From the NCBI GenBank assembly GCA_029246995.1, contig JAQWMB010000027.1:107072-171071 (forward strand): a stretch of 64,000 nt of DNA. Direction: 5' to 3'. A program made the position numbers and the translations under genes. Of the stretch, positions 52,391 to 64,000 are shown one piece after another. Each line of letters opens with the position of its first letter. The first letter of the stretch is position 1. Source of the DNA: Dehalococcoidia bacterium. GTDB taxonomy: Bacteria; Chloroflexota; Dehalococcoidia; UBA2979. The notes under the pieces were generated by a model that was not told the DNA's origin, ran no database searches, and saw only the letters and a program-made list of their open reading frames with translations.

Positions 52391-53182
52391 TTGAACAGAA
52401 TAGAAGACTATAGCATCTTACAAAAAGAAATAATTGCATGGATTAAATATTATTGCACTGATAATAATATCCAGTCATTAGTAGTTGGTGTTTCAGGTGG
52501 CATAGACTCCGCTGTTGTGTCTACACTGTGTGCTGGAACGAAAATAAAAACATACCTAGTCGGCATGCCTATTCATCAAGAAACTTCACAAGAGAATTAT
52601 TCTGATTTACATATGAATGAATTATCTGATAAATTTTCAAATATTGAAATTTTAAAATTCGATTTGACTTCTGTCTTTGAATCGTTTAAAAAGGCAATTA
52701 CCGTTAAATCTCAGCTAATTGATCAAAATTTATTAGCTCTTGCAAATTCAAGATCTAGGCTACGTATGGTTACTCTCTATCAAATTGCTCAACATTATTC
52801 TGGGATTGTAGTTGGAACAGGTAACAAGGTTGAAGATTATGGTATTGGTTTTTATACAAAATATGGTGATGGGGGTGTAGATATTGCTCCTATAGCTGAT
52901 CTATATAAAACAGAAGTATACAATCTAGGTATTCACATGCAAGTTAATGACGCAATTATAGAAGCACCACCCACTGATGGCCTATGGGATGATGCTAGAA
53001 CAGATGAAGAGCAGATTGGTACAACCTATGAGTTATTGGAATGGGTAATGGAATATGGCAGCGATCATCCTCGAGATCAACTTTCAGATGAGCAGCTTAA
53101 TGCATTAAAAATATTTAATAACTTTCATCAAAAAAATAAACATAAGATGGATTCTGTTCCAACTTTTTATTTAGAAAAATAA
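52391..53182 (+). CDS. nadE: NH3-dependent NAD+ synthetase
   Basis: VVGVSGGIDSAV PP-loop, GTGNKVEDYGIGFYTKYGDGG, APPTDGLW. Confidence 0.93.
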   Translation: MNRIEDYSILQKEIIAWIKYYCTDNNIQSLVVGVSGGIDSAVVSTLCAGTKIKTYLVGMPIHQETSQENYSDLHMNELSDKFSNIEILKFDLTSVFESFKKAITVKSQLIDQNLLALANSRSRLRMVTLYQIAQHYSGIVVGTGNKVEDYGIGFYTKYGDGGVDIAPIADLYKTEVYNLGIHMQVNDAIIEAPPTDGLWDDARTDEEQIGTTYELLEWVMEYGSDHPRDQLSDEQLNALKIFNNFHQKNKHKMDSVPTFYLEK

Positions 53183-53205
53183 TTTAATTTTAATAGTAGC
53201 TATTT

Positions 53206-53979
53206 TTAATTTATATTTTCAAAATTTAGAGTCAATGCCATTTTTAAACAGCCAATAGTAATATTTTGTTGGACTAGTTTAGGTTCTTTAATAGGAATTT
53301 CTCTCCCTTTTGCTTTAAGCTCTTTGTCCAATAAAGAAATTATATCTTTAGATTGACTCTTATTAGTATCTATAATAATTAATCCAGTATCTAGTAGTAA
53401 TGCAGCTGCGGCAACTTTTTGAATTATTTCTTCAAGTCTTTTACCACCTAAATGCTGCATTTGCTTAACTTCATTAGAGATATCTAATTCTCCAGCTAAT
53501 TGCTCTTCACCACGGACGATTTGATTTTCTATCAGTAAAGATATATTGAAAAGATTCTGAAGCTCTACATAGATTATATTTTTTACACTTTGCGCAATGC
53601 CTTGCCAATTTTCTCCTATTAATGCATTGTTTATATGACTTTCAATACCAATTGGACAGTTAATATTATTTTTTAAAATATCGGAAATCGAAAAGTCTTC
53701 TAATTTTTTATTTATTGGTGATTTAACGATTTTCCCTGAAAGTGGGTCTACGTTCCCTGGAAAAGAAATTGCAATTGACTTACAGGATCTTTTTTTGTTT
53801 TCCATTCCAAGAGTTTTTGAAATAAGTCCACCAATTTCCCATGCAAAAGATTCTCGGTCAATATTTTTTAGTTGTAATTCAAATTTTTCTTGCAAATCAA
53901 TATTACAATCCTTGTCAGCAAGTGTGATTTCTGTAAGAGATTCATCAATATTAACTACTACAAAAGCATCTTCATTCAT
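53206..53979 (-). CDS. Divergent ROK/ASKHA-fold-like protein with degenerate motifs
   Basis: IAISFPGNVDPLSGKIV and HINNALIGENWQG resemble the ROK phosphate-1 and adenosine regions. The GxGxG/AGEIGH and Cys-rich Zn motifs are absent (…AGELDIS). Confidence 0.45.
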   Translation of the reverse strand: MNEDAFVVVNIDESLTEITLADKDCNIDLQEKFELQLKNIDRESFAWEIGGLISKTLGMENKKRSCKSIAISFPGNVDPLSGKIVKSPINKKLEDFSISDILKNNINCPIGIESHINNALIGENWQGIAQSVKNIIYVELQNLFNISLLIENQIVRGEEQLAGELDISNEVKQMQHLGGKRLEEIIQKVAAAALLLDTGLIIIDTNKSQSKDIISLLDKELKAKGREIPIKEPKLVQQNITIGCLKMALTLNFENIN

Positions 53980-54080: not shown

Positions 54081-54974
54081 ATGAAATTCTATATAAACAA
54101 CAAACAATATGAAACTTCAGAGAAGCCATTAATTATGGGTATCTTAAATCTATCTATGGATTCTCCCATTGCTAGCTCTATATCATCAGTTGATAAGGCA
54201 GTTCAAAGATCGCATCAATTGATTGAAGATGGTGCAACTATTATTGATATTGGTGGTGATTCAACTAGTTCGATGGCTGATAACATTCCTTTAGAAAAAG
54301 AGTTATTGCTTATTGAAAAAGTAGTTAGTCAGCTACATGATGAAAAGATTATAACTTCAATAGATACGTGGAAATATCAAGTGGCGGAAGTTGCCGTAAA
54401 TGCTGGTGCAAGTATTGTTAATGATGTCACAGGATTCCGAGATCCAAAAATGGTTCAGGTTGTGAAAGAAAATTCTAAGATTGCTTTAGCAATGCACATG
54501 AGAGGAGAGCCAAAGCAACATTATGAAGTTGATCAGAACTATCAGTCAATTCAAAATGAAGTTTTTGATTATTTAAAACAACAAAATGCAATGCTGAATG
54601 ACTATGGAATCAATGACGTTTGGATTGATCCAGGTTTTGGTTTTGGTAAGTCTGCTAAAGATAACATTGCTCTATTTCATTCGATCGCAAATTACAAAAA
54701 ATTAAAACTGCCTGTAGTTATTTCTGCTTCAAGAAAAGGTTTTTTAGCAGAATTAATTGGCATGGGAAACACTCAGAAAGGTGATGAATTACTTGAAGCT
54801 ACAATGTTATTCAATATTCTATCTTTTTTGTTAGGCGCTGATATTCTTCGTGTTCATGATGTAAAAAAGATGAACACTACAATTGAAACATTACATGGTT
54901 TAGGAGGCTACCAGCATGATCCTGCCAAGCAATCAGATTATTACGGTGCATTAAAACAGCTATTTCAACTTTAA
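54081..54974 (+). CDS. folP: Dihydropteroate synthase
   Basis: IMGILNLSMDS, IIDIGGDST, SIDT, NDVTGF, DPGFGFGK, RVHDV. Confidence 0.92.
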   Translation: MKFYINNKQYETSEKPLIMGILNLSMDSPIASSISSVDKAVQRSHQLIEDGATIIDIGGDSTSSMADNIPLEKELLLIEKVVSQLHDEKIITSIDTWKYQVAEVAVNAGASIVNDVTGFRDPKMVQVVKENSKIALAMHMRGEPKQHYEVDQNYQSIQNEVFDYLKQQNAMLNDYGINDVWIDPGFGFGKSAKDNIALFHSIANYKKLKLPVVISASRKGFLAELIGMGNTQKGDELLEATMLFNILSFLLGADILRVHDVKKMNTTIETLHGLGGYQHDPAKQSDYYGALKQLFQL

Positions 54975-55208
54975 TTTGCTATAAATTGCATTTGAAATAG
55001 CTTCATGTTTATCTGGTTCTACAGGGATAGGTAATTGTTGCATTTCTGATATCAATATATCTTTGATTGCTTCAATTATCTCTGCGTCCAGTTTTTCTTC
55101 TTCCTGAATGTGGTTATTAATATTTTCAAAATCATAAAGTACAACTTGCCTGAAACCAAAATCCGCAACCGCTCTTTGAATGATTGTTTTAATTGTTTTA
55201 TTATTCAT
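54960..55208 (-). CDS. Small acidic helical protein (82 aa), translationally coupled to the SDR
   Basis: 4-nt start/stop overlap with 55205-55963. N-terminus IKTIIQRAVADFGFRQVVLYD loosely resembles NHLP/Nif11-type leader helices. Confidence 0.5.
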   Translation of the reverse strand: MNNKTIKTIIQRAVADFGFRQVVLYDFENINNHIQEEEKLDAEIIEAIKDILISEMQQLPIPVEPDKHEAISNAIYSKLKLK

Positions 55209-55963
55209 TGTGCTAAGCTACCTCCATTAATTTCAAAAAGTGAACCAGTGATATATGAAGCTTGATCAGAGCATAAAAATGCGACCATTGGTGCAATTTC
55301 TTCTGGGCGACCTGCTCGTTGCATTGGTATGCCTTTTTCCCATTTTTCAAATAATTCTTTGCTGCCAGTACTTCCTCTAGATTGCTGTGTATCTATTAGG
55401 CCAGGTACAATGCAATTGATTCTAATATTTTTTGTTGCAAATTCTAGGCTAACTGTTTTTGTAAGATGAATTATCCCTGCTTTTGTAACACCATATGCTA
55501 CAGAATTATACGACCCTTTAATCCCAGAACCAGATGAGAAATTAATTACTGAACCACCATTTTTTTCCATTAATGGAATGCCATATTTGCAACAAAGAAA
55601 TGTTCCTGTTAAATTGGTGCCTAAAGTTAAATTCCATTCAAATTCTGATGTTTCAGTCACTTTACCAGCATTAATTTTAATCCCTGCATTATTTATAAGA
55701 ATGTCTAATCTGGAATGTTTTTTGTTAATATTATGAAAAAAATCTTTTACCTCATCAATTTTTGAAATATCCAGTCGCATAAATGTAACATCAAGTTTGT
55801 TTGTTTGAAATTGTTTTGCTTCTGATTCACCAAGCGGAGCATTTCTATCGGCAAGAATTACTTGAGCACCACTTTCTGCTAACTCTCTGACAATTTCCCT
55901 GCCAATGCCAGTAGCTCCTCCTGTTACAACTGCTATTTTATTTTCTAATAATTTATTTGCCAT
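55205..55963 (-). CDS. Short-chain dehydrogenase/reductase (FabG-like)
   Basis: VTGGATGIGREI, NNAG, SS...YGVTKAG catalytic tetrad context. Confidence 0.9.
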   Translation of the reverse strand: MANKLLENKIAVVTGGATGIGREIVRELAESGAQVILADRNAPLGESEAKQFQTNKLDVTFMRLDISKIDEVKDFFHNINKKHSRLDILINNAGIKINAGKVTETSEFEWNLTLGTNLTGTFLCCKYGIPLMEKNGGSVINFSSGSGIKGSYNSVAYGVTKAGIIHLTKTVSLEFATKNIRINCIVPGLIDTQQSRGSTGSKELFEKWEKGIPMQRAGRPEEIAPMVAFLCSDQASYITGSLFEINGGSLAQ

Positions 55964-56040
55964 CGTGGTGTCTTTCTTGTATTTATTTTTGCTTTATATA
56001 TACTAAAATATAATTAAATAAATTAAAATAAGATAACATA

Positions 56041-57585
56041 ATGATTAATAACGATATAACTTTTGCAAACATCAGAACTCTATCTTCTTTAATGAAAAAT
56101 AAAGAAATATCACCTGTTGAATTAATAGACGCTTTTATAGAAAAAATAGAAAAATTAAATCCATCATTATCTGCATTTATTACTGTTACAAATGAATCAG
56201 CGTATAAATCAGCCCAACAAGTAGAAAAGTCAATTATGGATGGCAATCATAAAGGTATGTTGCATGGCATACCAATTGCTTTAAAAGATAATATTTTCAC
56301 TAATGGCATTTTAACAACTGCTGCTACACCAGGGCTCAAAGAACATATTCCAAACTATAGTGCAACTTGTTGGCAAAACTTTGAAGATGCTGGCGCTATT
56401 TTGATAGGAAAAACCATGTTACATGAATATGCTATTGCAGCATCTTTATGGTCAGACGGCTATGGTGCAGCTCGCAATCCTTGGGATCAAATTAAAACTA
56501 CTAATGGTTCTTCAAGTGGTTCAGCTGCTGCTGTAGCAGCAGGATTGAGTACGGTAGGCATTGGGACAGAAACAGGAGCTTCTGTGAGAAGGCCTGCTTC
56601 TTTTTGTGGATTAGTCAGCATGCTTGGTACATATGGAAGAATTAGTAGGTACGGAGTTATTCCAAATTCCTGGTCACTAGATCATGTAGGTATTATGACT
56701 AGAGAAGTTGACGATGCTCAAATTGTTTATGAAGCAATTGCAGGGCATGATCATAAAGATCCTACTTCTCTTCAACAAGATATCTATTCAAATAAAAACC
56801 TCAACCATGAATCTAATAATTTAATTGGTGCAATAATGTGGGATCATGTAGAAGGCTCTGTTGATGAAGATGTCTTGGTTGCAATGAAGGAAGTTGTACA
56901 AATATTACAAGAAGCTGGGGTTAAAATTATTGAAATGCAATCTCATGCTTTAGATTTTGCAGCACTTACTTCATCTATAATAATGAAATCAGAAGTCACA
57001 GCAGCACACAGCCATGCTTTGCAATTAGCTCCTGAAAATTATTCTGATTCATTGCGTACATTGTTGTTGGCTGGACGAGATAATAAAACGGAAGATTATT
57101 TATTGGCTTTACAAGCGAGAAGATTAATTCATAATGAAGTTAAAGGATTTTTTGAAGATATAGATTTTATTATAGCTCCATCAACTGCCACAGTAGCAAC
57201 AAATATTGTTGATGGATTTAGTGCAATGAGAGATCGACCATTTGAGGTAGGTGGAAATTGGCATAATCTACATCGAGTTTCTTCATTGTTAGGCCTACCG
57301 ACTATCTCCTTGCCTCACTCTCTAAATACTGATGGATTACCGACAAGTGTACAATTTATTTTTGATCATCATGAAGAAAAAAAATTGTTTGAATTTTCCA
57401 AATTTTATCGATCAATACAACCCTGGGACAAGAGCCCATCTTTAGAGTATGACTCATCTGAGATGATCAAAGAGCAAGATATTGATAAAGGGGGGCAAGT
57501 TAAGCCAGATCCTAATTTTTTGCATAAACAAACCATTGCTTTAAACGAACTAGTCATTGATCCATTTACTGAACCATTGTTTTAG
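56041..57585 (+). CDS. Amidase-signature (GatA-like) amidase
   Basis: GIPIALKDNI (Lys) and GSSSGSAAAVAAGL...GTETGASVRRPA (cis-Ser-Ser). Confidence 0.9.
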   Translation: MINNDITFANIRTLSSLMKNKEISPVELIDAFIEKIEKLNPSLSAFITVTNESAYKSAQQVEKSIMDGNHKGMLHGIPIALKDNIFTNGILTTAATPGLKEHIPNYSATCWQNFEDAGAILIGKTMLHEYAIAASLWSDGYGAARNPWDQIKTTNGSSSGSAAAVAAGLSTVGIGTETGASVRRPASFCGLVSMLGTYGRISRYGVIPNSWSLDHVGIMTREVDDAQIVYEAIAGHDHKDPTSLQQDIYSNKNLNHESNNLIGAIMWDHVEGSVDEDVLVAMKEVVQILQEAGVKIIEMQSHALDFAALTSSIIMKSEVTAAHSHALQLAPENYSDSLRTLLLAGRDNKTEDYLLALQARRLIHNEVKGFFEDIDFIIAPSTATVATNIVDGFSAMRDRPFEVGGNWHNLHRVSSLLGLPTISLPHSLNTDGLPTSVQFIFDHHEEKKLFEFSKFYRSIQPWDKSPSLEYDSSEMIKEQDIDKGGQVKPDPNFLHKQTIALNELVIDPFTEPLF

Positions 57586-57592
57586 GTAAGTG

Positions 57593-58561
57593 CTATATTT
57601 TAATGACAACTCTTCCAAATGCTTTTCTTGATTCAGCATATTGATGTGCTTTAATTGCCTCATTAAAGTTAAATACCTTGTCTATATATACTTTAAAATT
57701 TTTGCTCGCAATATTATTGAGAATATTATTTACTAAGTCATATACTCTTGTAAAATTTTTTGATTGTTCAGAGGCTAGCAGTATGCCATTAAAAGATATA
57801 TTTTTCTTCATCAACAATGTAATATCAATCTGATTATCACTTCTACTAGCATTCCCAACCGAAATAACTTTTCCGCGATACTTTGTAGCATCAATTGCTT
57901 GCTCTAAGGCTTGGCCACCAACTGGATCAATTGCTAAATCAACACCTATGCTATTCGTTATTCTTTTTACCTCATCAACAACATCATTTTTTGTATGAAC
58001 AATAATATCATTGACCCCAATTTCTTTTAATTTAGAGACTTTTTTTTCGTCTGACACTGTTCCAATTATATGAGCTTTATGCCGGTGAGCAAATTGAGCA
58101 ATAGCAATGCCGAGACCCCCAGATATGCCATTCACTAGGATGGTTTGCCCCTTATCTAAATGACCAAATTCAAATAAACAGTCATGAGCTGTTGCAAAGG
58201 TGACAGGTATGCTAGCAGCTTCTTCAAAGCTAATATTTTCTGGCATATACCATGCTGCTTTGGCAGGTACAGATCGTAATTCAGCATGAGATCCGTTGCC
58301 ACTCATTGCAACAACGCGATCACCTACTGAAAAATTACTTACTTCTGAACCTACTTCAATTATAATGCCAGCAGATTGATAGCCAATTACATAAGGTGCT
58401 TCTCCGATTGGTCCAAGTGCTCTTGCTCTAAGATCTCCTCCTTCAATACTAATTGCTTTGTTTTTAATAATGATTCCTTTTGGATGACATTGAGGATCTG
58501 GGATTTCTTCTATTTGTAGGTTAGAAGGCGGACCAAATTCATTTAATGTAATTGCTTGCAT
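57593..58561 (-). CDS. Zn-independent medium-chain dehydrogenase (quinone oxidoreductase-like)
   Basis: MQAITLNEFGPPSNL, NGISGGLGIAIAQFA NAD(P) fold, C-terminal GRVVIKI. Start taken at 58561, just after the RidA-fusion stop. Confidence 0.85.
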   Translation of the reverse strand: MQAITLNEFGPPSNLQIEEIPDPQCHPKGIIIKNKAISIEGGDLRARALGPIGEAPYVIGYQSAGIIIEVGSEVSNFSVGDRVVAMSGNGSHAELRSVPAKAAWYMPENISFEEAASIPVTFATAHDCLFEFGHLDKGQTILVNGISGGLGIAIAQFAHRHKAHIIGTVSDEKKVSKLKEIGVNDIIVHTKNDVVDEVKRITNSIGVDLAIDPVGGQALEQAIDATKYRGKVISVGNASRSDNQIDITLLMKKNISFNGILLASEQSKNFTRVYDLVNNILNNIASKNFKVYIDKVFNFNEAIKAHQYAESRKAFGRVVIKI

Positions 58562-58562
58562 A

Positions 58563-59804
58563 CTATTCTCCAATAACATAAGTACCAATTTTTTTAGCAT
58601 TTGGCACTGCAAAAACTTCAATTTCAATCAATAATCCATATTGCGCTAAGCCTCCTTGAAATGTAGTTCGCGTAGGATACGGAGGCGTAAAGTAAGATTC
58701 ATAAACTGAGTTAAATTCTTCATAATGCCTCCAGTCTACCAACGTAACTATTGATTTTACGATATCTTCTGCGCTTGAACCAAGTATTTCTAAGGCATTA
58801 CTAATGCCATCCATGATCGCTTTAGTTTGCGCTTTAATATCACCTGGACCTACTAGCTTACCCTCTAAGTCCGTTGCAACCATTCCTGAGATAGAGATAA
58901 ATTCATCAGTACGAATACCGGCACAATGAGGTGCTACTCCAGGTGTCAATCGATCATCTAAAGTAACATTTGGTCTATCAGATTTAGTTTGGTATTGACC
59001 TGTAATTGCTGTATCTACATACCTTCTTTCTTGGTTTACTATTGCCATAACATCAAATTCAATCAACCTATCTGGGTCTGATAATGTCCCTTGAATGGAG
59101 GCTCGTGTTGGATATGGCTGACCATAAAATTCAGCGTAAATCTCGTTGTATTTATCAAAATCTCTCCAATCAACAATTGTTGTATGATTTTTGATCACAT
59201 CTCTTGGAGTAGCACCAACTTGTTCCAATCCAATGCGCACCCATTCTAATGCTTGTCGTGTTTGAGCCTGGATGTCACCTTTTTTTATTACCTTGCCATT
59301 TTTATCGATGCCAGCAAATCCAGATAAAAAGACATAATCATCGATTTGTACAATAGCTGGCATATTGCCAAAACCTGATAAATCAGGAATATTTATTCTT
59401 TTAACATTTTTTTTCGTCGTTCCTATGCAATCAATTTCTATCAAAAAGCCATTATTTAATAATCCTTGGCCGGATATTGAAATTGCAGGCAACTGATCGC
59501 AGTTTTTTGTTAAAACTTCTTCAAGGTGTTCGAATTGATCCCAAGATGATAGATAGGAATTCATTTTAAGTATATCTATATTATCTACTTCTAGAACCTT
59601 GCTAATGCCATTGATATTATTGAAAATTTGATCTACTTGAGGTTTTAGAGATGGTTTTCCTGCATTATTACCTACTACCTCTTTTTTATTACGGTTAAAT
59701 CCTAATGTGCCTGATACAAAAACAAAGTCATTTATATGTATTGCATTGCTATATGGGCCGAGACCTATAGGTATGTGCTTGCTTTTGATTGTTTTTGTTT
59801 GCAT
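58563..59804 (-). CDS. Triple tandem RidA/YjgF/TdcF-domain protein
   Basis: Three modules of about 128-155 aa, each with PYSNAI/…FLSG…/…IE(I/F)(D/E) patterns. Modules 2 and 3 keep YPTR(A/T). Module 1 has LPAIS at that position. Confidence 0.85.
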   Translation of the reverse strand: MQTKTIKSKHIPIGLGPYSNAIHINDFVFVSGTLGFNRNKKEVVGNNAGKPSLKPQVDQIFNNINGISKVLEVDNIDILKMNSYLSSWDQFEHLEEVLTKNCDQLPAISISGQGLLNNGFLIEIDCIGTTKKNVKRINIPDLSGFGNMPAIVQIDDYVFLSGFAGIDKNGKVIKKGDIQAQTRQALEWVRIGLEQVGATPRDVIKNHTTIVDWRDFDKYNEIYAEFYGQPYPTRASIQGTLSDPDRLIEFDVMAIVNQERRYVDTAITGQYQTKSDRPNVTLDDRLTPGVAPHCAGIRTDEFISISGMVATDLEGKLVGPGDIKAQTKAIMDGISNALEILGSSAEDIVKSIVTLVDWRHYEEFNSVYESYFTPPYPTRTTFQGGLAQYGLLIEIEVFAVPNAKKIGTYVIGE

Positions 59805-59898
59805 AAAATCTCCTTTGTAGATTAAAAATGGTGTTGCATTTCTTTAGATTACTTTTTTTATTTAACTATGCTAGTCTTAAATTATAATCAATAAGAGT

Positions 59899-60777
59899 AT
59901 GCCTGTGAATATTAATCGACGTGAACTGGAAAAAAAAATTAAACTTTGGATTGATCTTGAAGCTCAATCTGATGGTCCATTTGAAATAGTTTATGAATTT
60001 ATTAACGATAGAGAAGAAAAATTTGCACGTTGGATTGTAATGGCTAATGCTGTCCATGAAAAATTTCAATTTTCTATGAATGATGAGATTGCTTGGCATG
60101 AATTTAAAAAACCACTTAATGAAAGTAGGATTAGTTTATTGACCACTGCTGGCGTGAGGCATAAATCTGATAAACCATTTATTACTGATTGCGAAAATAC
60201 TGATTCAAGCCATAGGATGCTTTCAAAAAATAGTTCGAACAAAGATTTTGCTATAGATCATTTGCATTATGATCACAGGCAAGCTGATCAAGATATCAAC
60301 TGTGTTTTTCCTATAGATGCATTGCATGTTTTACATCAAGAGGGAGTTATAGGATCAGTTGCCAATCATCATTTTGGATTAATGGGTTGTATTTCTAACA
60401 CAGATCTCTTAATTAAAAAAACAATCCCAGAGATTATGAATACATTAGTTGAAGACTCTGTAGATTGTGTTGTGTTGACACCTGGTTGATGGTTATGCCA
60501 TCGGTCAGTTGGACTGATACAAAATGCTATAGAAGATATTGGTATTACGACAATATCGGTTACAATGAAACCAGAAATAACTAGTCATGTCCAAGTTCCA
60601 CGTGCTGCATATATTCGGTTTCCATTAGGGAATCCAATAGGAGAATCATTTAAAAAAAATGATCAAAAAATTATACTTTCCGATTTATTAAAACTCTGTA
60701 AAACTATAAAATCTCCTGGAACGATATTTGAGTTGCCTTATCGATGGAAAAGGACCATTCAATCATTTTTGGAGTAA
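59899..60777 (+). CDS. GrdB/PrdB-family (glycine/sarcosine/betaine/proline reductase selenoprotein B-like) protein with in-frame TGA at 60487-60489 (probable selenocysteine)
   Basis: The two listed ORFs are in one frame (666-nt offset), separated only by one TGA. Read-through gives DCVVLTPG-U-WLCHRSVGLIQNAIEDIGITTISVTMKPE...PRAAYIRFPLGNPIGE. DINCVFPIDALHVLHQEGVIGS is also family-typical. Confidence 0.75.
60504..60518 (+). promoter_or_regulatory. Candidate bacterial SECIS hairpin
   Basis: GUCAGU-UGG-ACUGAU (5 Watson-Crick pairs plus 1 G-U). It begins 15 nt after the UGA and has G/U in the apical loop. Confidence 0.4.
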
Positions 60778-60786
60778 TTTATAATT

Positions 60787-61035
60787 ATGAATTTCACACA
60801 TAGAGATAAAGTTGAGAATATAGAAAATATTATTAATGAATTAATTGATAGCACTGAAATCTATTTAAATTACCTGCATATTCAAAAAAAACATCAAGAT
60901 GTAAAATACCATCGGACTCTTAATCTGGCTATTAAAGAAGCAGATGATTTAAATGAAGCATTGGGTTCTATTATTATGGATAGGCTAGTAAGAATAAAAG
61001 ACAGACAGATTATTTTGGATAAAATGAATGAATAA
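60787..61035 (+). CDS. Small helical hypothetical protein (82 aa)
   Basis: GGAG upstream. 8-nt overlap (ATGAATGAATAA) with the downstream LipL-like gene, so it is operonic. Confidence 0.55.
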   Translation: MNFTHRDKVENIENIINELIDSTEIYLNYLHIQKKHQDVKYHRTLNLAIKEADDLNEALGSIIMDRLVRIKDRQIILDKMNE

Positions 61036-61786
61036 TCAAAATATCTTTTTTTCTCAAGAAAAATTTTCCATTGATGAATTGCCTGCTCTCGACATTGCTG
61101 TATCAAGATTATTACTAGATAAAGTAAATTCTAATGAGTATTCTTCATTATTAAGATTGTATGAAGGTCATACGCAAGTTGCTTTTGGTCCGTCAGATAT
61201 AAGAAAGCCAGGCTACCAGCTTGCAGTGCAGGAAGCAAAGAAGAAAAAATTCTTTGTAGTTAATAGATTAACTGGCGGACATGCTGTTACATTCCATGAT
61301 GGCATTCTTGCTTTTGCATTCATGTTTCATGATCGGGAAGCACGATCAAAAATGCATTATTATTTCAATTTTGTCAGTAGTATTTTACAAGATGCTTTGG
61401 GTAGTTTGGGGTTTGCGTGCAACGTTGGCGAATTGACTGGTGAATATTGTCCAGGTCAATATAGCATAAATATTGAAAATAAAATTAAGATTGCAGGTAT
61501 TGCTCAGAGAATTGTAGCTAATGCAGTTTATGTAGGTGGCTTTATTGCTGTCAGTAATGCTGATTTAATTAAAGAGATCTTAGTACCTGTGTATAGTCAC
61601 CTTGAGATAGATTGGAATCCAAATACTGTTGGTAGTTTAGAGAATTATAAAAGTGACATTAAAAAAAATGACGTCATTGATGCTATTAAAAACAGATTGA
61701 GTTCTTTTTATACAATTAAGCAATTATCGATTGAACAAGCATTAATTCAAGATGCTAGCAAAGATCAATCAAAGTACTGTAATTAG
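61028..61786 (+). CDS. BPL/LplA/LipB-family protein, LipL/LipM-like octanoyl/lipoyl transferase
   Basis: NRLTGGHAVTFHDGILAFAFMF (RxxGGxAV) and GEYCPGQYSINIENKIKIAGIAQR (YCPG Cys plus K-x-AG-x-AQR), as recalled for Bacillus LipL/LipM. Confidence 0.7.
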   Translation: MNNQNIFFSQEKFSIDELPALDIAVSRLLLDKVNSNEYSSLLRLYEGHTQVAFGPSDIRKPGYQLAVQEAKKKKFFVVNRLTGGHAVTFHDGILAFAFMFHDREARSKMHYYFNFVSSILQDALGSLGFACNVGELTGEYCPGQYSINIENKIKIAGIAQRIVANAVYVGGFIAVSNADLIKEILVPVYSHLEIDWNPNTVGSLENYKSDIKKNDVIDAIKNRLSSFYTIKQLSIEQALIQDASKDQSKYCN

Positions 61787-61821
61787 AATAGTAAATATAA
61801 ATACTGTGATGGCTACTTACT

Positions 61822-62640
61822 TTATAAAAAGAATTTATTACTTTCTAAGTAAATAATTACCGTGCTACTTGCAACAACTACAATGAGATATTCAATAATA
61901 ATAGAAATAGTTAATTTTTTATTTAATTCAGCATTTATAAGTCCTGCAGCAAAATGAAAGAATATTAAACCAGTAATGACTATAATTTCTTTGCTGAGTA
62001 TTAAGTTATTTATTAAAATCCAGAATTCTAAGAACACAACTGAACACGCCATTACAGATAAAAGGTTAACTAGAGGCCTTCTGTATGGATTGTAAAGATA
62101 ATTTGTTGACAGCATGTATATGCCTATACCAATAATTGTAAATTCTTCAGTTTGCGAAAAATTTATGCGTTGCACTAAAATGAGTAATGCAATTAATAAG
62201 AAGTAACAAAATAATGAATTTATGAAATCGGCTCCATGATTAATATTTTGATAATTTATGTTAGATATTTTGAATGAAAATATATAGATAATAAATGGTA
62301 TATATAGAATCAAGATCTGCAACAAATTTAATGAATCAGTTATGGAAAAAGCAAGGTACGGAATTATGATTGCATATAATGCAGGTAGCATTGAAAAAGG
62401 CAAAAGTATTAATTGTATACTGTATTTTTGATTTGATCGCATTGAAGCTATTGTAGCAAAGCCAAAACTAGCTATAAGTGCACTGATAGGGAAAAGCCAG
62501 GAAATATTTGGGAAAAAATTAATTGAAACCGAAAATAATATAAAAAATATTATTCCATAAATAAATAACTTATCCCAAGAAACTAACGCTTGAGTAGTTT
62601 GTGATTTTTTTTGTTGATTTAATTCAAATATTTTACTCAT
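61822..62640 (-). CDS. Polytopic membrane protein of unknown function
   Basis: About 8 hydrophobic helices. No recognisable motif. Confidence 0.55.
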   Translation of the reverse strand: MSKIFELNQQKKSQTTQALVSWDKLFIYGIIFFILFSVSINFFPNISWLFPISALIASFGFATIASMRSNQKYSIQLILLPFSMLPALYAIIIPYLAFSITDSLNLLQILILYIPFIIYIFSFKISNINYQNINHGADFINSLFCYFLLIALLILVQRINFSQTEEFTIIGIGIYMLSTNYLYNPYRRPLVNLLSVMACSVVFLEFWILINNLILSKEIIVITGLIFFHFAAGLINAELNKKLTISIIIEYLIVVVASSTVIIYLESNKFFL

Positions 62641-62648
62641 AATTCACT

Positions 62649-63368
62649 TTATTTTTGATTGTTAAATACTACAGTATGAATTTCTTTAAGTGAATTGATG
62701 CTTTTTTTTATTTTTTTTTCAGCTTTTCTATCAATCAGAATAGCATCAATTCCAATTTGCTTTGGGCCATAATAGTCATTTTCTAAATCATCACCTATGA
62801 ACAATGCTTCGTTAGTCGTAGTTTGCATTTTTTTTATCGCATCTTTATAAATATTGTGATGAGGTTTTCTGTAACCTACCTGAGCGCTGGATAAGATAAT
62901 TTCAAAAAAATCTGCTATTTTTAAATTATTAATGATTTTATCGAGATTCCATAAATGATTAGAAACTATCCCCATCTTTATATTTTTTGTTTTTAAATCC
63001 TCTAAAGTTTCTATTACATCATCATATAGAAAATAGAATTTTAGATTAGATTCAAGCACATAGATTCTTTCAGTTATATCGTCAATAAAATCAGTAACTC
63101 CCATTTTTTTAATTCGCTCAGCATGGATATCTTTTCTTAATTTTTTATACTTGCCTGATGACTCAGATTCTGAAAGATGACTAATGCCTTCATGAGTCAT
63201 CCATTTTAACCAAGCATTCTTAATTGGCATTTTTTTTAAAGAATTTTCTTTTAAATCGATACCAAATTCTTTAATTGCTTGTTGATAAATTTCTTTATGT
63301 GTAGGCAACATATATCCTAATGTCCCATCAAAATCAAATAGCACAACTTGCTTAGCAATATTTTTCAT
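62649..63368 (-). CDS. HAD-superfamily hydrolase
   Basis: VVLFDFDGTLG (DxDGT), IVSN, FIGDDLENDYYG. Confidence 0.85.
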   Translation of the reverse strand: MKNIAKQVVLFDFDGTLGYMLPTHKEIYQQAIKEFGIDLKENSLKKMPIKNAWLKWMTHEGISHLSESESSGKYKKLRKDIHAERIKKMGVTDFIDDITERIYVLESNLKFYFLYDDVIETLEDLKTKNIKMGIVSNHLWNLDKIINNLKIADFFEIILSSAQVGYRKPHHNIYKDAIKKMQTTTNEALFIGDDLENDYYGPKQIGIDAILIDRKAEKKIKKSINSLKEIHTVVFNNQK

Positions 63369-63379
63369 TTTTTAACTTT

Positions 63380-64000
63380 CTAAGTTGATAATTCTGTGAT
63401 AATTTCTTTGATCTTAATTAATTTTTCTTCTTTATTATAGTTAAAAGCAAGTTCTATTTTTTTTGTACCTTTATTTAAAATTTGTTTAGCAAATTTTTTT
63501 TCAATTTTATTCCAGGGTAATTCCTTTTGTGAAAGAAGAGTCAATGTATTCTGTTTAATTGAAATTGACTCTATGTTTGCGTGCTTTGCAGCTAGATTGA
63601 TTGCTTGTATGTGGAATATATTAGAAATTTCTTTAGGGCTTTTACCAAATCGATCTTCTATTTCTTCTTCTAGATTGTATATTTCTGTTTCTTGTTTGCA
63701 TCGACTTAATTTTCTGTAAAAATCTAACTTCATTTCATTTTTTTGCATATAACTGTCTGGAATAAATATTTTTAAATCATAATCAAAATCAATTTTTGCA
63801 AAAAATTCATAATTTAATGCTTGTTTCATTAATGGCATGTTACTTTTTTTATTTGTAATTGCTTCTGATAACATTTGAGTATATAACTCTAGACCAATTG
63901 CTGAAATATGGCCACTTTGTGCATCTCCTAGTAAATTACCCGCACCTCTAATTTCTAAATCTTTTAGAGCAACTTGAAAACCTGAACCTAGGTTACTAGC
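63380..64000 (-). CDS. mfd: Transcription-repair coupling factor, C-terminal part (gene continues beyond the window)
   Basis: Frame is open to the window end. SNLGSGFQVALKDLEIRGAGNLLGDAQSGHISAIGLELYTQML, then a TRCF C-terminal domain. Confidence 0.88.
   Translation of the reverse strand, partial: ASNLGSGFQVALKDLEIRGAGNLLGDAQSGHISAIGLELYTQMLSEAITNKKSNMPLMKQALNYEFFAKIDFDYDLKIFIPDSYMQKNEMKLDFYRKLSRCKQETEIYNLEEEIEDRFGKSPKEISNIFHIQAINLAAKHANIESISIKQNTLTLLSQKELPWNKIEKKFAKQILNKGTKKIELAFNYNKEEKLIKIKEIITELST

Follow-up and report, generated by a model that had tools for sequence, protein, structure and literature searches.

A PrdB-like selenoprotein gene and a small partner gene form a conserved pair in Dehalococcoidia and other bacteria

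Introduction

Do the closely packed genes around a selenoprotein gene in a marine Dehalococcoidia genome encode one reductive pathway, or are they neighbors by descent? The question is raised by 64,000 nucleotides of contig JAQWMB010000027.1 (assembly GCA_029246995.1, positions 107,072 to 171,071 of the forward strand), hereafter called the window. The corresponding genome, G000, comprises 1.19 Mb on 31 contigs and is 89% complete. An earlier note on this DNA had proposed that a GrdB-like selenoprotein gene, the gene of an 82-aa protein behind it, an LplA-like transferase gene and a divergent pair encoding a triple RidA fusion (3xRidA or RidA3) and a quinone oxidoreductase (QOR) act together in reductive C-N chemistry. 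The present analysis points instead to three units that are adjacent by descent and do not form a single pathway: a two-gene module consisting of the selenoprotein gene and the 82-aa gene, a LipL/LipM-type gene, and a block encoding a short-chain dehydrogenase/reductase (SDR), an amidase, the QOR and 3xRidA. We assign a probability of about 0.6 to this reading.

Results

Recoding of the in-frame UGA

Under translation table 11 the plus strand harbors two open reading frames (ORFs), 59899-60489 and 60565-60777, which merge into a single frame of 292 aa when TGA is translated as selenocysteine (Sec). This frame contains only one TGA, which lies within the motif G-U-W-L-C-H-R-S-V-G-L. In a survey of 401 genomes of the class, G000 counted, 75 carry a homologue at a cut-off of E<=1e-30. 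In every match listed a single in-frame TGA falls on the aligned U-x-x-C, and two matches contain a TAA or TAG in addition; U197 and C200 are invariant in an alignment of 64 sequences. The genes selA, selB and selD as well as tRNA-Sec were found in G000. A hairpin begins 11 nt past the UGA, and folding of about 20 homologues yielded the same hairpin with a GUG-type loop, the stem being kept by paired changes (GUCC/GGAC versus GACC/GGUC). With its position near the UGA, its G/U apical loop and its conservation, the structure resembles a bacterial selenocysteine insertion sequence (SECIS) and is a putative binding site of SelB.

Because the TGA is conserved, the Sec machinery is present and the hairpin is conserved, the recoding is real, and the selenoprotein call of the earlier note is borne out. 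Gene callers split the gene everywhere, as would be expected if the TGA were a true stop in a broken or split gene from which no selenoprotein is made. This explanation is hardly credible, however, since the TGA occupies the same codon in all 75 genomes, conserved sequence carries on in frame behind it, and both the hairpin and the full Sec machinery are at hand. The selD gene of G000 (G000:C27:18863-19783, L009) likewise has one in-frame TGA, so that its selenophosphate synthetase appears to be a selenoprotein itself.

A small protein family that accompanies the selenoprotein

The 82-aa ORF starts 9 nt past the stop codon of the selenoprotein gene, which confirms the direct succession of the two genes described in the earlier note. 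Its product had no match in Pfam or NCBIfam, its scores in the ESM Atlas did not exceed 0.77, and a word-based search returned only one near-identical cluster. With HMMER, 29 cluster representatives at E<=1e-3 were recovered from 1.84 billion representative proteins. Nearly all of them are 76-120 aa long, and none is a fusion of a PrdB-like protein with the partner. A metagenome scan with the partner alignment added only five loci, all close kin. When the window protein was aligned with five homologues, D-R-L-x-R-x-x-D-R emerged as a motif conserved at the C-terminus, and no Cys or Lys proved to be conserved.

The DNA context was recovered for six of the HMMER matches (L101, L102, L103, L117, L118 and L119), and a further locus, L017, was found separately. 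All seven lie outside f1, the family that holds the genus of the window (g1) and its sister genus (g16). In each of the seven a PrdB-like Sec gene is located directly upstream of the partner gene, and the same holds for all f1 loci. These upstream genes, which gene callers cut at the TGA, encode proteins 37-48% identical to that of the window, with the motif G-U-x-x-C-H-[RQ]-S-V-G-L or a near variant. The seven loci range from 33% to 70% GC, differ in their flanking genes and stem from at least three phyla, among them a Nitriliruptoraceae-like member of the Actinomycetota (L118) and Thermaerobacter of the Bacillota (L119). Genes of high-GC loci were delimited with tblastn and a filter on third-position GC content (GC3). 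Among the distant Dehalococcoidia PrdB-like paralogues and the Proteobacterial cysteine (Cys) forms examined, none has the partner beside it, and the Cys forms are also devoid of the other neighbors seen in the window.

The small family thus always follows a PrdB-like Sec gene although the flanks differ, and two loci described below, L080 and L081, lack both genes. We therefore regard the two genes as a module. Judged by this conserved gene order, the PrdB-like selenoprotein has in the 82-aa protein a true and conserved partner, which represents a new, small protein family; the co-occurrence of the two genes, which the earlier note had put up for testing, holds beyond the window.

Two further small elements were noticed. 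A Cys form that is 44% identical to the selenoprotein (L014:430-1497, P0009) is placed within the module sequences by the tree described below, has C-A-V-C in place of U-x-x-C and carries a C-terminal extension of about 95 aa, similar in size to the partner. The possibility that this extension is a fused partner found no support, as hhalign gave a non-significant probability of 1.8%. Loci of the high-GC sister genus have yet another small ORF, the third in the row, behind the partner gene (63-69 aa; L015:8288-8497, L016:8299-8508 and its counterpart in L032). It shows a zinc-ribbon-like pattern, C-x-H-H ... C-T-N-C-G, and is absent from the window.

Affiliation of the selenoprotein with PrdB

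The earlier note had labeled the selenoprotein GrdB-like. The best NCBIfam model is PrdB (TIGR04483), which matches with 172.7 bits and does not reach its equivalog cut-off of 300, whereas the GrdB, GrdF and GrdH models yield only 55-62 bits, their cut-offs being 600-800. The GRDB superfamily PF07355 gives 48.2 bits at a gathering cut-off of 22, but only profile positions 205-345 of 347 are covered, which corresponds to its C-terminal half. Bona fide PrdB proteins from a Bacillota sample attain 305-433 bits on TIGR04483, while the module-type gene of G412, the genome of L119, attains 175.6 bits. The 292-aa protein also departs from the full-length GrdB/GrdF/GrdH architecture of about 430 aa with GrdA and GrdE as partners, and it possesses the U-x-x-C of PrdB in the form G-U-W-L-C. 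Because TIGR04483 is the best model yet stays below its cut-off, the GrdB-type scores are low and PF07355 is matched by half, the protein is best classified by sequence as PrdB-like, being neither GrdB-like nor a PrdB equivalog, and the former label is abandoned. A quick tree built with IQ-TREE unites the true PrdB clade (support 100) with the module-type sequences in one group of 27 rows, apart from the other paralogues.

Modeling with AlphaFold2 and the alignment of 64 sequences reached a mean confidence (pLDDT) of 93.8, compared to 30.6 from the single sequence. The predicted structure has two helices at the N-terminus besides an alpha/beta core; Sec197 sits where a strand ends, immediately ahead of a helix. 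A sequence search of the PDB with the selenoprotein returned no relative, and Foldseek and VIA-align against the PDB returned only generic Rossmann-like folds (best E 9e-3; Z<=8.6), so that no function is drawn from the fold. Scanning genome contigs with the single protein sequence produced no match; in the scan with the alignment the Sec position was back-translated as Cys, and Cys forms alone are findable in this way.

Absence of the classical partners

The earlier note had further described the selenoprotein as a stand-alone Sec enzyme without GrdE, GrdA or PrdA, and this view is supported. PF09338, the GrdE/PrdA family, was not found in five genomes with the module (G000, G018, G412, G413 and G414), while the positive control, G029, was detected with 258 bits. 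GrdA (PF04723) was not found in G000 in a search that had no positive control. In the control genome a GrdB-type gene lies beside the GrdE/PrdA-family gene (G029:C3:23512-26044).

Classical prd operons encode a small protein of their own, PrdH, a factor of 92-94 aa that equips PrdA with its pyruvoyl group and depends on PrdB (PMC11229817). For comparison, the small ORFs upstream of prdB were taken from ten bona fide loci, and seven of them were aligned to build a profile. This alignment shows an invariant R32, in agreement with the published protein (PMC11229817). The PrdH profile matched 10 of 10 true prd loci and none of the seven module loci, and it had no match in the six-frame translation of G000. 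Conversely, the profile of the new partner matched 7/7 module loci and 0/10 prd loci. A direct comparison of the two families with hhalign gave a probability of 0.09%. Given these reciprocal results, the two PrdB types have, in the loci compared, mutually exclusive and unrelated small partners. The module is accordingly an orphan with respect to the profiles searched: neither PrdA nor GrdE was found with it, and G000 yielded no GrdA or PrdH either.

Genes surrounding the module

The features of the locus are listed in Table 1. Their coordinates and domains confirm the arrangement described in the earlier note, including the overlap of the 82-aa ORF with the LplA-family ORF by 8 nt, the 3xRidA and QOR genes diverging from the selenoprotein gene, and the amidase and SDR genes at the flank. 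A promoter-like site on the minus strand (59909-59881, 11/12 matches, by consensus match only) covers part of the divergent spacer and 11 nt of the selenoprotein ORF. Since 92% of the window is coding and 13 of its 37 same-strand gene pairs are at most 10 nt apart, close packing carries little weight as evidence for a common function.

Table 1. Features of the module and its surroundings in window coordinates.
Feature	Position	Strand	Evidence
PrdB-like selenoprotein, 292 aa, Sec197	59899..60777	+	Translation with TGA=U; TIGR04483 172.7 bits; PF07355 48 bits
UGA read as selenocysteine	60487..60489	+	Conserved TGA in homologues; Sec machinery in genome
SECIS-like hairpin, 7-bp stem, AGUUG loop	60500..60518	+	Folding of the window sequence and of about 20 homologues
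82-aa partner, new small family	60787..61035	+	Alignment; 29 cluster representatives; always directly downstream of PrdB-like Sec gene
LipL/LipM-type lipoyl/octanoyl transferase paralogue	61028..61786	+	PF21948 72 bits; Cys-Lys motif aligned to 2p5i
Divergent spacer between 3xRidA and selenoprotein genes, 94 nt	59805..59898	.	Coordinates
Triple RidA fusion, 413 aa	58563..59804	-	PF01042 in three stretches, 207 bits
PIG3/QOR-type MDR oxidoreductase	57593..58558	-	TIGR02824 213.8 bits (cut-off 296.8); ADH_N and ADH_zinc_N
Amidase-signature enzyme, AtzE/GatA-like	56041..57585	+	PF01425 323.6 bits; NCBIfam matches all below cut-offs
SDR oxidoreductase	55205..55963	-	PF13561 and PF00106

The LplA-like protein exceeds the PF21948 cut-off of 27 bits, and its residues Y-C-P-G ... 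K-I-A-G-I-A-Q-R align with the PDB entries 2p5i and 2p0l, as the pattern reported in the earlier note had implied. It scores 54 bits on the LipL equivalog and 67.6 bits on that of the GcvH octanoyltransferase (LipM), far below the cut-offs of 450 and 400. Only 10 of the 401 genomes of the class carry the gene, and of the nine besides G000 only G018 has a PrdB-like match at E<=1e-30. At eight other loci its homologues were found beside gcvH in four cases and beside an E2 gene in one. The order gcvT-gcvH-gcvPA-gcvPB was confirmed by Pfam in two of the four gcvH loci. LplA-like homologues head such gcv operons. Elsewhere in G000, lipB-lipA lies next to aceE and E2 on contig C12, and gcvH is located elsewhere again. 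The idea that the LplA-like protein is the sole lipoylation enzyme of the genome was rejected because lipB and lipA are present on C12. Since no Lys is invariant in either module protein, a lipoyl acceptor among them was likewise dismissed. The gene is probably co-transcribed with the module in the window; within the three-unit reading and at the same level of confidence, it encodes an ordinary lipoyl/octanoyl transferase tied to lipoylation of GcvH/E2 and lies outside the conserved module.

Two relatives are particularly informative. In L080 and L081 the selenoprotein and 82-aa genes are missing, and the LplA-like gene is directly divergent from RidA3 at a distance of 107 nt. Both loci keep QOR and the amidase, although the contig of L080 ends inside the latter, and L081 additionally retains the SDR gene, a different 82-aa ORF and folP. 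RidA3 is 90% identical to that of the window in L080 and 75% in L081, the range in relatives without the module being 75-95%. In g16, at about 50% identity to g1, the module is still divergent from RidA3, and the same arrangement occurs in L122-L124. As g16 keeps the module in this position, parsimony favors its loss in L080 and L081. The synteny of g1 and g16 also takes in folP and hence reflects common descent. Outside f1 the module was never seen beside the LplA-like, 3xRidA or QOR genes. The proposal that these three belong to the same system as the selenoprotein is thus contradicted from both sides, by relatives that keep them without the module and by modules that do without them. As regards the transferase, the earlier note itself took constant adjacency of its homologues to gcvH or E2 genes as a mark of housekeeping lipoylation, which is largely what the 5/8 loci display.

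The window is also mosaic in its identity to relatives. The six-gene block from folP to 3xRidA (54081-59804) shows 80-95% protein identity to L079 and L080, compared with 46-63% to L079 in the flanks (52391-53979 and 59899-64000), where nadE reaches 63%, ROK 51%, the PrdB-like protein 62%, the LplA-like protein 53%, HAD 49% and the C-terminus of mfd 47%. The right-hand break coincides with the spacer between RidA3 and the PrdB-like gene. This pattern suggests a recent exchange of the folP-3xRidA block among lineages, or a chimeric assembly, and given the two levels of identity to L079 the module side and the RidA side appear to differ in history.

The other 82-aa ORF, at 54960-55208, lies downstream of the SDR gene and overlaps the end of folP. 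It is present with 47-88% identity in L079 and L081, occurs also in L016 and has a weak match to Frankia_peptide below the cut-off.

Wider genomic contexts

Two unrelated-looking genomes share a larger set of genes around the module. L017 (1-10520) and the locus of G412 (L119:7204-16267 with L136:2071-13673) have in common the module, an E2 gene, creatinase-type M24 peptidases, a branched-chain-type ABC transporter and an FrsA-like hydrolase, the last being 67% identical. In G412 the set is extended by E1 alpha and beta, an amidohydrolase, an amine oxidase, an aldehyde dehydrogenase and an E3-like flavoprotein. From its gene content this island is a candidate for the native pathway context of the module. 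The module is often found among nitrogen-compound catabolic genes, so that the link to nitrogen compounds made in the earlier note is retained. The recurring E2 genes make a dihydrolipoyl protein a lead for the reductant, based on a count made after the fact.

More distant relatives occur in other settings. In a Rhodospirillum-like metagenome-assembled genome a Cys-form homologue of 30% identity starts 2 nt after an amidase-signature gene (L018:5571-7897), a second and independent amidase adjacency. Within the class, all 22 sampled genomes of genus g26 have PrdB-like Sec genes, several of them in tandem pairs about 0.1-0.5 kb apart (L062, L067, L068 and L072); at least one genome of this genus, G029, has the GrdB-type gene with its GrdE/PrdA-family neighbor as well. 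Distant PrdB-like Sec paralogues in the same family of genomes are situated within about 0.5 kb of D-2-hydroxyacid dehydrogenases at three loci, and family III CoA-transferases are near at three loci (L040:8652-9716, L042:11273-12439, L043:10768-11781; L037:8391-9608, L043:11830-13113). These neighbors hint at organic-acid substrates for the distant paralogues.

Discussion

Proposed function of the module

Chemistry, reductant and role of the partner can be sketched for the module, the chemistry by analogy with PrdB. The module would consist of a PrdB-like selenoprotein with Sec197-x-x-Cys200 and a dedicated accessory protein of about 80-100 aa. The selenolate of Sec197 may attack a nitrogen-containing substrate at a carbon (or heteroatom) that adjoins a carboxyl or carbonyl group; Cys200 would resolve the adduct to a selenenyl-sulfide, and a general dithiol, either thioredoxin or a dihydrolipoyl protein, would reduce it again. 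As no pyruvoyl subunit is present, the substrate must not need activation as a Schiff base; this requirement would suit amino acids that are quaternary or N-alkylated, as well as other alpha-substituted acids. Betaine reductase provides a precedent, since it cleaves a C-N bond that is unable to form a Schiff base. The small protein, having no conserved Cys or Lys, would be a structural, assembly or specificity subunit and not a redox carrier, and the SDR-amidase-QOR-3xRidA genes would be a separate block for the handling of amides and imines. We tentatively propose, at odds well short of even, that the module is a self-contained, pyruvoyl-independent two-subunit selenoenzyme of Chloroflexota, Actinomycetota, Bacillota and abundant marine plankton, which reductively cleaves a bond in a nitrogenous osmolyte or amino-acid derivative, for example an N-alkylated or quaternary amino acid, with a protein dithiol, possibly dihydrolipoyl-E2/GcvH, as reductant.

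Several observations weigh against the three-unit reading. The three genes on the module side are packed in g1 and probably form one transcript. The divergence of RidA3 and the module has been kept between g1 and g16 down to about 50% identity, and also in L122-L124, so that a local functional link within f1 is possible. Lipoyl-related genes recur near the module, in the form of the LplA-like gene in f1, which in g16 lies within 3.5 kb, and of the E2 lipoyl protein in L017 and L119; the f1 loci share ancestry, however, and L017 and L119 may do so too, which weakens this count. An amidase gene directly precedes the distant Cys form in L018. In addition, a PrdA-like gene may have been missed in G000 given its completeness. 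The same packing, divergence and lipoyl genes would be expected if the PrdB-like protein, the 82-aa protein, the LplA-like enzyme, 3xRidA and QOR, perhaps with the amidase and the SDR, formed a single reductive C-N pathway in which a lipoyl dithiol or the NAD(P)H enzyme reduces the selenenyl-sulfide again, RidA disposing of imine products. D-proline reductase (EC 1.21.4.1) accepts dihydrolipoate in vitro, which would agree with such recycling. Nevertheless, we consider a single pathway improbable: L080 and L081 hold every proposed partner but not the two module genes, the modules of other phyla have none of these partners nearby, gcv operons elsewhere begin with LplA-like homologues, the synteny of g1 and g16 extends to folP as expected from descent, and neither module protein offers an invariant Lys for lipoate.

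Other explanations concern the enzyme itself. It might be a general U-x-x-C selenol/thiol oxidoreductase for redox defense or protein-disulfide chemistry that cleaves no C-N bond, with the small protein as chaperone or adaptor. Marine selenoproteome surveys class the family with UxxC thiol-type redox proteins (PMC1088965), the predicted Rossmann-like alpha/beta sandwich has no specific structural neighbor, and the flanks vary as widely as those of a self-sufficient redox protein would. Homology to PrdB spans the whole catalytic domain, though, the protein is placed next to the true PrdB clade, and the module frequently lies in islands for the catabolism of nitrogen compounds, together with transporters, hydrolases and local LacI/GntR regulators; we judge a role of this kind unlikely while still giving it serious weight. 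Far less probable is a true B subunit of D-proline (or glycine/betaine) reductase whose PrdA/GrdE partner is unassembled or too divergent. The incompleteness of G000 and the rank of PrdB as top-scoring family would be compatible with it, but the score of 172.7 bits lies far from the cut-off and from true PrdB, PF09338 is missing from five module genomes with the control detected, PrdH is unmatched in G000 and in the module loci examined, and a COX3 match in the window does not fit Stickland fermentation. The reading favored here remains that of a two-gene module next to two separate units.

Significance

Marine PrdB-type sequences are labeled "proline reductase", which denotes an anaerobic Stickland enzyme that needs PrdA and PrdH. 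The subtype described here occurs in a respiring pelagic Dehalococcoidia genome and in members of at least two other phyla, is found without PrdA and PrdH and always has its own small partner. If it is indeed a pyruvoyl-independent enzyme, part of the marine "proline reductase PrdB" is a different, uncharacterized enzyme. As a minimal unit of two genes it can be expressed and assayed, which makes the function of the subtype directly testable. Caution is advised when such genes are annotated as D-proline reductase, and when pathways are read from tight packing in streamlined genomes.

Comparison with known systems

The selenoprotein family as such is known and has been listed since 2005. "Proline reductase PrdB" was reported among the most abundant marine selenoprotein families, with 42 and 235 sequences in the surveys of the Sargasso Sea and the Global Ocean Sampling expedition (PMC1088965, PMC2398784). 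The window gene is probably of the same kind, a marine UxxC homologue of PrdB. The passages of these papers searched here name the family proline reductase and make no mention of the absence of PrdA, the gene context or a small partner (PMC1088965, PMC2398784). The literature searched contains no description of the partner protein, the PrdA/PrdH-free status or the gene context; as far as this literature goes, the partner and the orphan status are new.

GrdB, GrdF and GrdH share the C-terminal PF07355 domain and the Sec motif with the window protein, which lacks the N-terminal half of GrdB (292 versus about 435 aa) and whose genome yielded neither PF09338 nor, in the search without control, GrdA. 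The product of 61028-61786 shares with LipL and LipM (PF21948; 2p5i, 2p0l) the catalytic-domain match, the Cys-Lys motif and gcvH/E2-linked homologues, but is far below the equivalog cut-offs and constitutes a second paralogue beside the genomic lipB-lipA.

PrdH and the new partner are both about 90 aa long, adjoin a PrdB-type gene and strictly co-occur with it. They differ in position, as PrdH is encoded upstream of prdB, between prdA and prdB (PMC11229817), and the new partner downstream, and in motif, with G-R-x-G ... P-x-R-M and the invariant R32 in PrdH as opposed to D-R-L-x-R-x-x-D-R; the target of PrdH, PrdA, is absent here, and hhalign gives no sign of relationship (0.09%). By analogy, an accessory role comparable to that of PrdH is plausible for the new partner.

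The closest known relative is PrdB itself (TIGR04483). Homology extends over residues 62-285 with 34-39% identity to bona fide PrdB, and both proteins have in common the U-x-x-C position, Sec decoding with a downstream hairpin and neighboring places in the tree. The window protein differs by an additional N-terminal helical extension of about 60 aa, by the lack of the pyruvoyl subunit PrdA and of PrdH, by another small partner encoded downstream and by its host, which is a respiring marine member of the Dehalococcoidia, whereas PrdB belongs to Stickland fermenters.

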